Of a stretch of DNA of 23,494 nt, positions 17,297 through 23,494 are shown piece after piece. A program made the position numbers and the translations under genes. The notes beneath the pieces were generated by a model. It was not told the origin of the DNA. It saw only the letters and a program-made list of their open reading frames with translations, and did no database searches. Source of the stretch: a virus (lineage: Duplodnaviria > Heunggongvirae > Uroviricota > Caudoviricetes); the IMG/VR virus record IMGVR_UViG_3300025597_000613, positions 1 through 23,494 of that record, one strand, 5' to 3'. How positions within the stretch are numbered: the stretch's first letter is position 1; each line of letters starts with the position of its first letter.

Positions 17297-17324
17297 ATTA
17301 TAGCACCTGCTATAAAAACGTCAA
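17297..17324 (-). promoter_or_regulatory. sigma70-type promoter TTGACG-16-TATAAT overlapped by palindrome TTATAGCA-N2-TGCTATAA
   Basis: Sequence. Confidence 0.8.
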
Positions 17325-17327
17325 GCG

Positions 17328-17375
17328 GAAAAGAGAAAGCCCTGCAACCGGGACAGTTCCGGACTCAGCAGGGCT
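17328..17375 (-). terminator. terminator-like hairpin AGCCCTGC...GCAGGGCT plus UUCUCUUUU
   Basis: 8-bp outer stem, U-rich tail. Confidence 0.65.
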
Positions 17376-17880
17376 CACCGTTATGACCGTTGTTGGCACC
17401 GGATGCAGTACCAATCTCCGACACAGTACCTTCTATGTATTCACTAGATGCTCTCACCTCAGGGATGAGTATCCAGCTTTCCTCCAGTATACTCTGCGTC
17501 TATCACCAAATTATACTCTAATCAATATATGCATTGCACCCCGCAAAATCGGGCAAGCAAGTGGCCGGGATTCTTAGGCCCCTAACAAAAAATTATGAAA
17601 GTAATGTAAGTTTCTTTGGATATATCTCCTCAAGCCGATAAATCGGGTCAAAGATCTATCATATCATTTATGTAACGTTAATTCCATCGGCACCCGCCCT
17701 GTTGGACAGAAACCAAGTGGGTTGCACCTCTCAGTACAATACGGCTCAGTGAATGGCGAGGATTAGCTCCCGAACTACAATCCTACAAGCCATTCACCGG
17801 AGATTTGAGTTTCCCTTTCGGGCACAGATTTCTCTATGTCATCAGCACTCATCTTCTCCGACCGTTTCGTCCTTCTGAAC
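17328..17880 (-). ncRNA. candidate large structured RNA region (~550 nt)
   Basis: No credible ORF; nested stems with GNRA tetraloops and G-U pairs favouring the minus strand; 3' terminator. Confidence 0.5.
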
Positions 17881-17883
17881 TCG

Positions 17884-18072
17884 TCAGTTGTACAAATTTT
17901 CAAGCAGTAGATAAAGAGCAAAAAGAGTATTTAGAACAGGGCACAGAATCAAGAACATAGCAAAAATTCTTTCCTTCATGGTGAAGGGGTAACCCATTTC
18001 CACCCCGGCTCTATACTCCTTTGCAAGGAGCAAGGCCAGAACAATAACGGAAAGGATATACGCTGCAATCAT
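17884..18072 (-). CDS. small membrane protein (start MIAAYIL)
   Basis: Two hydrophobic segments, CPVLNTLF motif. Confidence 0.7.
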   Translation of the reverse strand: MIAAYILSVIVLALLLAKEYRAGVEMGYPFTMKERIFAMFLILCPVLNTLFALYLLLENLYN

Positions 18073-18105: not shown

Positions 18106-18280
18106 AAAAATCTGCCTCAGTTGCAAGCATCCGAGGTCTAGTATTTTTCAACCCTTCGGTTTAGCCTGGGAATTCAACCCAGCGACAAAAGAACGATGTA
18201 AGCCTTTCACTTACCTGCCCGCAAAATTCCCTGCGTTTTTTGGGTGGGACGCAGAGATACGCTTTCGCGTAGCCTTTAGA
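18106..18280 (-). ncRNA. candidate structured RNA with GAAA tetraloops and terminator
   Basis: UACGC-GAAA-GCGUA, GUAAG-UGAAAG-GCUUAC, CUGGG-UUGAAUU-CCCAG, terminal CCUCGG/CUGAGG plus U-run. Confidence 0.45.
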
Positions 18281-18377
18281 ACTCACGCTTCGGTCTTGAA
18301 CCGAACATCAAACGGACTTCAGGCATGCTTGCAGGGCCCTACGTCAAATCTCGTCTGAAGCATCCCCATTCGTGAGC
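18281..18377 (-). other. tRNA-like element (acceptor stem and canonical T-arm, no D-stem, extended central arm)
   Basis: GCUCACG/CGUGAGU; UUCGG-UUCAAGA-CCGAA; GCUUCAG/CUGAAGU; no encoded CCA. Confidence 0.45.
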
Positions 18378-18382
18378 ATATT

Positions 18383-18455
18383 TGGCGTCTTCTTGCAGGC
18401 CTTGAACCTACCAGTGATACATCATTAACGATCAAAGTGTTCCAACCTAGAAGAC
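18383..18455 (-). pseudogene. degenerate tRNA with encoded CCA; anticodon not assignable
   Basis: GUCUUCU/AGAAGAC-G-CCA; T-arm GUAGG-UUCAAGG-CCUGC; poor D-arm and irregular anticodon arm. Confidence 0.5.
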
Positions 18456-18466
18456 AAATTTGAAAA

Positions 18467-18537
18467 GTCCCACGGGGAGTCGAAACCCCAATCGCGTTAT
18501 TTTAAGAAGCGCGACGTCAACCTTTAGATGACAGGAT
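18467..18537 (-). pseudogene. degenerate tRNA-like sequence
   Basis: D-like CAUCUAAAGGUUGAC, UCGCG/CGCGA stem with 13-nt loop, GGGG-UUUCGACU-CCCC; weak acceptor stem. Confidence 0.35.
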
Positions 18538-18563
18538 GCAGCCCGTTCATCTACGACGGAAAC

Positions 18564-18704
18564 TTACAGGGTACGACAGAAAGAAAAGTGGGGCCGACCC
18601 TACGGCGCTGGGGATAACCCATCTATTCTCTTCCGATTGCAACAGAACTTGGAGAAAGTGGCATTTGCATCTACCCGAATCCCCTTGTCTATCGCCCCCT
18701 GTAA
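18564..18704 (-). ncRNA. candidate ~140-nt RNA closed by a long basal stem
   Basis: UUACAGGG/CCCUGUAA plus GCGAUAGA/UCUGUCGU; inner GGGGAU/AUCCCC and GCCG/CGGC; weak promoter upstream. Confidence 0.5.
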
Positions 18705-18719
18705 ATTCCCAACAATCTT

Positions 18720-18748
18720 ATTTTGCTGTATTAGCAAGGATAGGTCAA
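18720..18748 (-). promoter_or_regulatory. weak-consensus sigma70 promoter TTGACC-17-CAAAAT with spacer palindrome TTGCT-N5-AGCAA
   Basis: Sequence; precedes the RNA cluster. Confidence 0.45.
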
Positions 18749-18759
18749 CTGGTGCTATA

Positions 18760-19161: not shown

Positions 19162-19190
19162 ATTTTATGTTGAGTAAGTTTGGTTGTCAA
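19162..19190 (-). promoter_or_regulatory. sigma70-type promoter TTGACA-17-TAAAAT
   Basis: Sequence. Confidence 0.85.
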
Positions 19191-20419
19191 TAGGCGTAAC
19201 GACGCGCAGTGAGATAATTCTTTCTCATCCAATGATTGACTGCATGCATTTCTTCGGGTCGTGCCTGCCGGTTAGCGAAACCGCGAATTTGTATCACTTC
19301 GCCGTTCTCGTTGATTTCGAGAGTGAGCGCACGTTCAAAAGCAATCGATTTCTTCGGTTGATGCCTCTTCACGCTCCAGATGCTGGATTTGCCACTAACG
19401 CATTTTTCTTGATAGCTATAGACACAGTGGTGCATAGCCGTCCCCTCAGCCGCCAGATCCTTGCTGGTCTTGATCTGAGTGAAAGACCATTTGTTTCCAG
19501 GCATGCCATCGAGCTCGAACTCATCATCCGCAATAGGAATGCCCTCCCACCTGGCATCGCCCATCCTTTTCACGCGGGCGAGTTCGTAGTGCCAATCTTG
19601 CATTTGGCGACGCAGAGATTGGAGGTTACGGCCCCTCAGGCTATAATGCGTCTGTTGGATACGTGCCCGATTATCGCAGTGAATGAAATAGTCGATAAGG
19701 TCATTCATCTCCTGCAGAGGGATTTCGTTGCTGCAGAAGAATTGAATAACTTCTCTCCAGATGTTACGTTCCAGCCAGGTAATGCCGGGGAAATCTCGAA
19801 GCTTAGACTTCATCACGCGAGTGCGAATTCCCAGGTCCTGGGTATGATTGGTGGCAATGGCGAAGATGATCGCCTCCCTGAAATCGGCATCTACGGGGCA
19901 GTTCAGGAAAGTGTGAGTTTCTTGTTTAGAAAGAATGCCTTTGGTGTGCTCTTTGTACAGGGAACCACCAGAAGCGGCAGTGATAAACCATTGCCGGCGA
20001 AGACGAATTTCTTCGGCAGACACACGAACAATATCTTGTCGCGCCTGGCGCCGCTCCCACCAATGTTGTCGTAGATTGGTATTACTGACAATTTCTTGTT
20101 CCAGATACCAGCATTCCTGCAGGTAGGAAGGAACCTTGTACTTACCGAAGAGATGCGTGGCAACTGCCAGCGTAATTTTTCCACGATCCTTCGTTCGAAG
20201 GGAACGATTGAAGGTGCTAATCTCACGGATACGACGATCGCCATAGTCCAGGATAAGCTTCTGTGCAATGTTCTCGAGGGAATTTTTCATATCTTCTTCC
20301 AGCTTCTTAGCTTCATGGCTTCGGATGGAAGAAGACAGCATCGCCTTGGTTCGTGCCTCAATGGCCTCCTGTTCACGGAGACGTTCTTTAAGACCACCTT
20401 GATGTTTTTGTTTTGCCAT
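19187..20419 (-). CDS. PcfJ-domain protein, probably leaderless
   Basis: C-terminal QIKTSKDLAAEGTAMHHCVYSY...SIWSV...TLEI...IQIRGFAN typical of PcfJ-like domains. Confidence 0.85.
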   Translation of the reverse strand: MAKQKHQGGLKERLREQEAIEARTKAMLSSSIRSHEAKKLEEDMKNSLENIAQKLILDYGDRRIREISTFNRSLRTKDRGKITLAVATHLFGKYKVPSYLQECWYLEQEIVSNTNLRQHWWERRQARQDIVRVSAEEIRLRRQWFITAASGGSLYKEHTKGILSKQETHTFLNCPVDADFREAIIFAIATNHTQDLGIRTRVMKSKLRDFPGITWLERNIWREVIQFFCSNEIPLQEMNDLIDYFIHCDNRARIQQTHYSLRGRNLQSLRRQMQDWHYELARVKRMGDARWEGIPIADDEFELDGMPGNKWSFTQIKTSKDLAAEGTAMHHCVYSYQEKCVSGKSSIWSVKRHQPKKSIAFERALTLEINENGEVIQIRGFANRQARPEEMHAVNHWMRKNYLTARRYAY

Positions 20420-22726: not shown

Positions 22727-23019
22727 TGGTGCCCGAAGCGGGACTCGAACCCGCATGTCTTTCGACGGGGGATTTTCTTACCACTATGACTTTCATCACC
22801 ATTTCTGTTTGTGGTCTGGACTATATCTTCACCTTTGCTTGTGCTTTAGGTGTTTGGGTATCTAGTCTCTACGGCGCTCTGGAGTTAACCAGTTCCCTCG
22901 GTGTTGCCATCAGCATTATCTGTTAAGGTTTCACCGATATCCCCAAATCCACTTTATAAGTTTCCCTATAAAGGCTCAGTTTTCAAAGTCCCCTGTGTAT
23001 ACCATTTCACCATCCGGGC
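22727..23019 (-). tRNA. trnL: tRNA-Leu(UAA), intron-containing (exons 23019-22986 and 22776-22727), CCA encoded
   Basis: Spliced product: acceptor GCCCGGA/UUCGGGC, D-arm GUG/CAC, anticodon arm GGGGA-CUUAAAA-UCCCC, long variable arm, T-loop UUCGAGU; 84 nt. Confidence 0.92.
22777..22985 (-). mobile_element. group I self-splicing intron (209 nt, no ORF) inserted after U34 of tRNA-Leu(UAA)
   Basis: P1 CUU/GAG with U-G at the splice site; P2 with GAAA loop; P4 UCGGUG/CACCGA; R GUAGAGACUA; S AAGAUAUAGUCC; P9 GAAA; terminal G. Confidence 0.92.
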
Positions 23020-23494
23020 GTTAATTTTTTCTGCAATTTTACAGCTCTTTCGTAATTACCACCTTTTGCTGCTAATCCTACGCTCTGCAATGCTTGCCTT
23101 ATATTACTATGAGATTGCAGTGCAGTCAAAAGTTCCTCGTCAGACACTTTCTTTTTTCCGGGATTTTTATTTCTACCCCTGAATGTATCTGTCTGAGAGT
23201 GGCAATTAGGGCATAACCATCTTAAATTTTCTTTTCTATTATCAGTTCTTTTACCATTTATGTGATCGAGTTCGAGAACCAGGTGTTTATTTTTCCAACC
23301 AATGATTCCGCAATCTTCGTCACTACATTTATATTCTAATATATTAAAATGATGAATATATTTTCTTAGGAATTCGCTACCCCAATGGGTATTTTCTTTA
23401 AAAATTTCCTCTTCAGTGTATGTAGTTGCCCCCTTATGAGATATTCTATCTTTTATCTCATCTGGTAATGAATGGTAATCATATCCTCTATGTG
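23007..23494 (-). CDS. HNH homing endonuclease, 5'-truncated by window edge
   Basis: LELDHINGKRTDNRKENLRWLCPNCHSQTDTFRGRN followed by VSDEELLTAL...VGLAAKGGNY helical domain; stop TGA at 23009-23007 inside the tRNA gene. Confidence 0.9.
   Translation of the reverse strand, partial: HRGYDYHSLPDEIKDRISHKGATTYTEEEIFKENTHWGSEFLRKYIHHFNILEYKCSDEDCGIIGWKNKHLVLELDHINGKRTDNRKENLRWLCPNCHSQTDTFRGRNKNPGKKKVSDEELLTALQSHSNIRQALQSVGLAAKGGNYERAVKLQKKLTPGW

Follow-up and report, generated by a model that had tools for sequence, protein, structure and literature searches.

The gene-free stretch described here, part of the window (the whole 23,494-nt stretch of phage DNA that was analyzed), encodes a real, conserved folded RNA on the minus strand, in which a ribozyme of a known class, the hammerhead, is fused to an uncatalogued structured RNA. 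A sequence-only reading had noted a hairpin resembling domain V of group II introns; judged from its bases, this "domain V" belongs to a type I hammerhead ribozyme, as its 3' half. The hammerhead fold is very probably genuine and under selection.

Folded RNA in a gene-free region of a phage genome

The window is the start of a virus record of 211,620 bases that is rated 55% complete. The tail sheath of this genome shares 54% identity with those of the Pseudomonas jumbo phages PA5oct and Paride, which suggests that the source is a PA5oct-like jumbo phage. The genes surrounding the RNA element lie on the minus strand, and on this strand the region was more stable than its shuffles (z of -2.99, 0/100), with no folding excess over shuffles on the plus strand (z of -0.94). 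The stretch had been read as free of ORFs, and its minus strand indeed contains none of 50 amino acids or more. All of the helices named in that reading were recovered on the minus strand where it had placed them, and the branched domain (17798-17860), the long hairpin (17749-17797), the GAGA-capped hairpin (17722-17739), and a TATAAT (17510-17515) are all present. The 5' boundary had been misplaced: the element begins at 17893, where the 5' half of the hammerhead starts 13 nt beyond that boundary, so the hammerhead core (17881-17887) had been cut off. No Rfam model matched the region at E values up to 5, and the check that had been proposed for GOLLD, ROOL, and group II introns returned no matching model in the window or the homolog loci. 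The proposal of a large structured noncoding RNA (ncRNA) in a phage RNA cluster, with no catalogued match, is supported by the Rfam searches of the window and homolog loci, and covariation is present among the collected homologs in the hammerhead stems as well as in the 3' RNA helices.

A type I hammerhead with a long structured stem III

The hammerhead is made up of the following parts, listed in the direction of transcription.

17881-17893, minus strand: 5' strand of stem I (17888-17893) and core CUGACGA (17881-17887)
17865-17880, minus strand: stem II, of 4 bp with the loop AGAA, and GAAA (17865-17868)
17861-17864, minus strand: 5' strand of stem III, covarying
17798-17860, minus strand: branched domain within stem III, not conserved and variable in length
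17749-17797, minus strand: long hairpin within stem III, whose asymmetric internal loop (17781-17789 opposite 17757-17762) is conserved
17733-17745, minus strand: 3' strand of stem III (17742-17745), U16.1 (17741), A17 (17740), 3' strand of stem I (17734-17739), and U1.7 (17733), all previously read as the 5' strand of domain V

The GAAA of the core is followed by CGG, whose stem III partner is the CCG at 17742-17744, and stem III bears a folded insert of 115 nt consisting of the branched domain and the long hairpin. The predicted cleavage site is 17740/17739, after a GUA triplet on the minus strand. Searched with the full hammerhead descriptor, the 211-kb genome gave one match, and 150 dinucleotide shuffles gave none. 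Rfam hammerhead models had no match in the window, and Hammerhead_3 reached only an E value of 1.8 in two homologs (23 bits versus a threshold of 48.5); the models miss the element because stem III carries a long insert. The branched domain contains a second CUGAUGA, but a second working hammerhead there was rejected, as it lacks stem I and its core is mutated in the near-identical locus L122. Cleavage of other sites in trans was likewise rejected, a scan for sequences like the cut site having given 13 scattered loose matches and no exact repeat.

Conservation of the hammerhead among homologs

Twenty-two distinct full-length homologs were found, all in phage-type contigs; 20 loci were used for the counts, and 2 were held out. 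Apart from L122, they are 46 to 59% identical to the window, and they cluster into about 15 groups at 80% identity. Four came from contigs encoding relatives of the neighboring PcfJ-like protein, with the RNA sequence playing no part in their selection, and further ones came from patterns built solely on the downstream RNA. Most were found by motif patterns, which biases the conservation upward. Copies found by the downstream motif alone had the hammerhead in all cases where the contig was long enough, as did the held-out members found via the kink-turn (k-turn) motif, and every copy long enough to judge begins with a hammerhead.

The CUGANGA core between stems I and II was present in 20/20 loci, across which the UA of the cut site was invariant, in keeping with the A15.1-U16.1 pair and the NUH triplet of hammerheads, and compensatory changes occurred at pairs 3 to 6 of stem I and pairs 2 to 4 of stem III. 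Of the three helices, stem I is the one with the open ends, as in type I hammerheads. U1.7 was retained in 19/20, and loop II ended in A in 16/20. Hammerheads are known to form a tertiary contact between stems I and II through U1.7 and an A, and these two positions would fit that contact. The GAAA is contiguous in the window and 15 others, while four copies have two hairpins between A13 and A14, and three copies have an additional U following A9. The core of L345 (2236-2090, minus strand) is GUGAUCA, a G3-C8 swap of the C3-G8 pair; C3 and G8 of the hammerhead are reported to pair and covary (PMC3088659). The stem III insert ranged from 38 to 151 nt among the homologs. The branched domain of the window resembles the twin-hairpin unit of the four copies and, from this likeness, may be a relic of it.

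Outside this set, a generic search for long-stem-III patterns returned only ordinary hammerheads, an exact pattern of the branched domain had no match, and neither did a BLAST search of GenBank phages. No copy of the RNA family was found in phages FLC9, PA5oct, Phosso, Atu_ph07, SCTP-2, or Vibrio 2.275.O, where the weak matches inspected were unrelated and mostly coding sequence. The core pattern had 0 matches in GTDB genomes, and the k-turn pattern gave two matches there, both in Synechococcus and unrelated.

Structure and conservation of the 3' RNA

The predicted 3' product extends from 17739 to about 17331 (approximately 407 nt; 306 to 486 nt in relatives) and contains the following features.

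17722-17727, minus strand: alternative partner of the stem I 3' strand, closing the first hairpin of the released RNA
17684-17721, minus strand: bulged-C hairpin opening with a conserved CCCWCU motif, assigned partly by inspection
17532-17646, minus strand: conserved core, comprising a hairpin (17635-17646), a near-invariant GGA/UCC hairpin (17616-17629), an A+U hairpin (17582-17610), a GGG/CCC hairpin (17567-17582), and a bulged-C helix (17532-17563)
17501-17531, minus strand: variable A+U-rich linker with the unconserved TATAAT (17510-17515)
17420-17500, minus strand: k-turn domain, with a long-range helix (17494-17500 with 17420-17426), the k-turn itself (UGGAG at 17482-17486 with CAUAGAAG at 17430-17437), and a variable hairpin (17443-17477)
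17393-17414, minus strand: 3' hairpin of variable sequence
17329-17374, minus strand: terminator-like hairpin and pyrimidine tail, missed by a simple scanner

The predicted product would be a free-standing RNA, and covariation shows that it is structured. In the core alignment, 84% of cells pair and 12/26 pairs have a compensatory change, which exceeds all 500 shuffles and all slid controls; relatedness inflates these numbers, and single helices nonetheless show clear swaps. The best-conserved features include the CCGGCCACU motif opening a bulged-C helix, the GGA/UCC hairpin, and the k-turn. The k-turn, a 3-nt bulge followed by G-A and A-G pairs between C and NC helices, was found in 19/19 copies with compensatory flanks; its four purine-rich pairs were invariant (19/19), and a C:G pair became G:C in L127. 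On the C side, most copies have one C-G pair and then a purine-rich loop. The terminator-like hairpin was found in all full-length homologs. L132 is without the k-turn domain and L128 without the first hairpins; therefore, not every part of the 3' RNA is essential. The folding z scores of the 3' products were modest (0 to -4.5; -1.5 for the window). No Rfam family matched the 3' product, likenesses of the RNA to group I introns, RNase P, tmRNA, and the hairpin ribozyme found no Rfam support, and no L7Ae, Ro60, or reverse transcriptase (RT) genes were found in this genome rated 55% complete.

The TATAAT had been suggested to split the element into two RNAs. A promoter scan found no -35 element, and the hexamer lies in the A+U-rich linker and occurs in 8/20 homologs at scattered places; an internal promoter at 17510-17515 was therefore rejected. 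The division into two RNAs itself is predicted, but by self-cleavage at 17740/17739.

Alternative pairing of the stem I strand

The GAGA-capped hairpin assigned to domain V is real, but as an alternative pairing that replaces stem I. Stem I had a computed probability of 0.98 when the transcript ended at 17728 but of 0.09 when it extended to 17700; among the loci, this probability was 0.8 or more in 16/20 nascent transcripts and 0.25 or less in 17/20 full precursors. The calculation ignores tertiary contacts, and the fall could partly reflect transcript length, since longer RNAs give more chance competitors. Most copies have a matching strand, ending in CAA, immediately ahead of the conserved CCCWCU motif. 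Roughly half of the homologs show strong re-pairing at this downstream site, and the others form only 3 to 4 bp. Because stem I is likely in nascent transcripts and unlikely in full ones, the folding model suggests that cleavage would be cotranscriptional and followed by a strand swap.

The ncRNA operon and neighboring genes

Five features flank the hammerhead-led RNA in the window.

19187-20419, minus strand: PcfJ-like gene
18720-18748, minus strand: promoter-like site of the upstream operon units
18140-18750, minus strand: upstream operon units, comprising a long-stem RNA, tRNA-shaped elements, and a CCCACCCAAG motif RNA
17884-18072, minus strand: 62-amino-acid hydrophobic ORF, matching no known family and terminated by the UGA within the hammerhead core
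17297-17324, minus strand: sigma-70-type promoter of the next gene (11/12), directly after the terminator

The upstream units include a degenerate tRNA shape and a tRNA-like RNA with an acceptor stem and T arm, and none of them matches Rfam. The motif RNA with CCCACCCAAG and GUGGAAGGC loosely recalls twister. ncRNA-like units of the same kinds stand in the same order upstream of the hammerhead in many loci. The hammerhead-led RNA closes a conserved ncRNA operon, as the hammerhead directly follows the ncRNA units in eight loci; an ORF intervenes in others. Optional structured units come and go between the operon RNAs (L122, L126, L127, L131, L156, L166, and L345), and a 151-nt insert in L122, at about window position 18163, is flanked by a short direct repeat.

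Promoter-like sites resembling that of the next gene come after the terminators of the homologs. L150 and L128 retain an intact hammerhead even though a promoter-like site stands only about 40 nt (L150) or 140 nt (L128) upstream. L145 and L155 have a long ORF within the hammerhead (L145:4065-4898 and L155:1767-2426, both minus strand; probably also L134, upstream of 4247), upstream of which a broken 5' half is left; a replacement for it, carrying a longer stem II, overlaps the end of the ORF. The inserted protein of L145 matches homing endonucleases, and that of L155 is GIY-YIG-like by eye only. Homing at a ribozyme site is possible. Because the hammerhead has been kept despite nearby promoters and ORF insertions, these loci indicate that selection favors a precise 5' end made by the ribozyme.

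The five closest relatives of the PcfJ-like gene among those examined with long flanks (L125 to L128 and L179) are within about 5 kb of the RNA, and no copy was present within the flanks examined of L129, L180, and L182. Ribosomal L12-like genes are found near the RNA operon in L125, L126, and L179. Elsewhere in the window, a tRNA-Leu(UAA) is split by a group I intron (22727-23019 and 23007-23492, both minus strand; RF00028, 46.9 bits) and directly follows an HNH endonuclease ORF; group I matches also occur in L131, L134, and L179.

Proposed processing and alternative explanations

We consider it probable that the type I hammerhead (17733-17893) and the 3' structured RNA (17739 to about 17331) form one transcription unit. 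The hammerhead, with its long structured stem III, would fold during transcription and cut after the GUA at 17740/17739. From established hammerhead chemistry, the upstream product would be expected to carry a 2',3'-cyclic phosphate and the downstream RNA a 5'-OH. Once made, 17722-17727 would re-pair with the freed strand, a computed exchange that would favor product release and disfavor re-ligation. The released RNA, with its k-turn, would end at the intrinsic terminator; we infer that it is transcribed and stable. The ribozyme would thereby give the 3' RNA an exact and probably decay-resistant 5' end and detach it from upstream ncRNAs, small ORFs, or inserted endonuclease genes. Such 5'-end maturation is the likely role of the hammerhead. 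What the 3' RNA then does is a guess: we lean weakly, at somewhat less than even odds, toward a trans-acting RNA that binds proteins during infection as a stable scaffold or decoy, rather than catalyzing a reaction or regulating in cis.

Alternatively, the product might be a single large RNA or ribonucleoprotein in which cleaved and uncleaved forms coexist and the hammerhead serves as a regulated or reversible switch, its stem III internal loop docking on the 3' domain or binding a ligand or protein. A simple processing ribozyme has no need of the conserved internal loop, and in full-length precursors the alternative pairing outcompetes stem I. We nevertheless regard a switch as unlikely, as the insert varies from 38 to 151 nt, no covarying contact was found between the insert and the 3' RNA, and nascent folding strongly favors the ribozyme. 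Similarly doubtful is a combined proposal in which the 3' product is a phage RNA of a new functional class, dependent on the ribozyme-made 5'-OH either as an RtcB substrate or as a self-assembling scaffold or anti-defense decoy, and its amount is set by the hammerhead and the conserved stem III loop acting as a regulated switch.

Production of the 5'-OH for ligation, with a phage RtcB joining it to the cyclic-phosphate end to give circles or rejoined RNAs, appears quite improbable. This genome does encode an RtcB RNA ligase (57426-58553, minus strand), and RtcB is present in 2/5 related records, including the sole complete one; however, the gene is 40 kb distant, amid unrelated genes, has an ordinary RNA repair role, and is linked to this RNA by none of the findings, and the 3' end is a terminator, with no second ribozyme found there. 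Less probable still is a cis-regulatory leader or attenuator of the downstream gene. The RNA does end in a terminator, relatives of the same downstream gene follow in 7 loci, and by inspection a GGC-GGAG in several homologs could pair with the terminator 5' strand as a second k-turn-like helix, but this antiterminator pairing fails in the window, the downstream genes differ between loci, and the downstream gene has its own strong promoter past the terminator.

A circularly permuted or degenerate group II intron, with the hairpin at 17709-17747 as domain V and the downstream RNA as domains I to III, has almost no probability: introns with D5/D6 in front do exist (PMC8637638), the 5' end to be released mostly reads UUGUG, which approaches GUGYG, and the domain V string is locally present in the window, yet its bases make up the GUA triplet and the 3' strands of hammerhead stems III and I, and covariation links them to the 5' half of the hammerhead. 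RF00029 matched neither the window nor the genome (E of ≤10), no Rfam group II model matched the window or 19 homolog loci, and domains I to III, a domain VI with a branch A, and a GUGYG start were not found; no RT is present in the genome rated 55% complete. Among the homologs, AGC was kept in 4/20, and there was no domain V pattern or GNRA-capped domain V in any. Compared with group II and circularly permuted introns, the likeness is a local one, due to chance and confined to the window, as the triad, bulge, GNRA cap, and domain VI are unconserved in the family.

Comparison with known RNAs

The window family shares with type I hammerheads (RF00163, clan CL00010; PMC3088659) the strand order, the CUGANGA and GAAA core, the NUH site, the 4-bp stem II, and the C3-G8 pair. 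In contrast to them, it has a folded stem III insert of 38 to 151 nt with a conserved internal loop, it has core variants (the extra U after A9, twin hairpins between A13 and A14, and G3-C8), and its position is constant, at the front of a single large ncRNA, whereas the known ones flank changing genes. Bacterial and phage type I hammerheads have been proposed to cut phage polycistronic RNA (Perreault et al. 2011, PMC3088659), and hammerheads that may cut phage transcripts are already known (PMC3088659, PMC6765202). For most self-cleaving ribozymes of bacteria and phages, the biological purpose is still an open question (PMC6765202). A hammerhead tied to the 5' end of one conserved ncRNA in every complete copy offers a concrete, testable purpose. 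It also reveals a hammerhead form missed by Rfam, and its natural core variants (G3-C8 and extra hairpins) are usable for enzymology. A literature search of incomplete coverage, with two motif catalogues outside it, found no description of this RNA family, a so far uncatalogued group of large RNAs from PA5oct-like jumbo phages.

GOLLD, ROOL, and OLE (PMC12286853) are likewise hundreds of nucleotides long with covarying helices, and GOLLD and ROOL share the phage or tRNA-region setting. The window RNA is smaller than all three and less rich in invariant bases, it carries its own 5' ribozyme, and no pseudoknot was found in it; the covariance models of GOLLD, ROOL, OLE, and HEARO gave no match. 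The k-turn has the same signature as those of RAGATH-18 and drum (PMC8191799), with C:G at -1b:-1n, A:G at 3b:3n, and G:U at 4b:4n, and it is predicted to fold in Mg2+ alone. Unlike RAGATH-18 and drum, to neither of which there was an Rfam match, it makes up a single domain within a larger RNA. None of the homolog loci was seen to have a TnpB-like gene next to it.

PA5oct represents the nearest cultured phage group, and its orphan ncRNA001, ncRNA002, and ncRNA004 are abundant and 236 to 619 nt long (PMC7318152); none of the three matches the window RNA family in sequence or motif. An unannotated 900-nt gap of PA5oct shares sequence blocks with ncRNA004 (L321:5300-6230 and L322:417-1035). Both the gap and ncRNA004 contain a GGAUGAWGCUCUGG...GAAAC string that by eye resembles a hammerhead variant and is unrelated to the window family.
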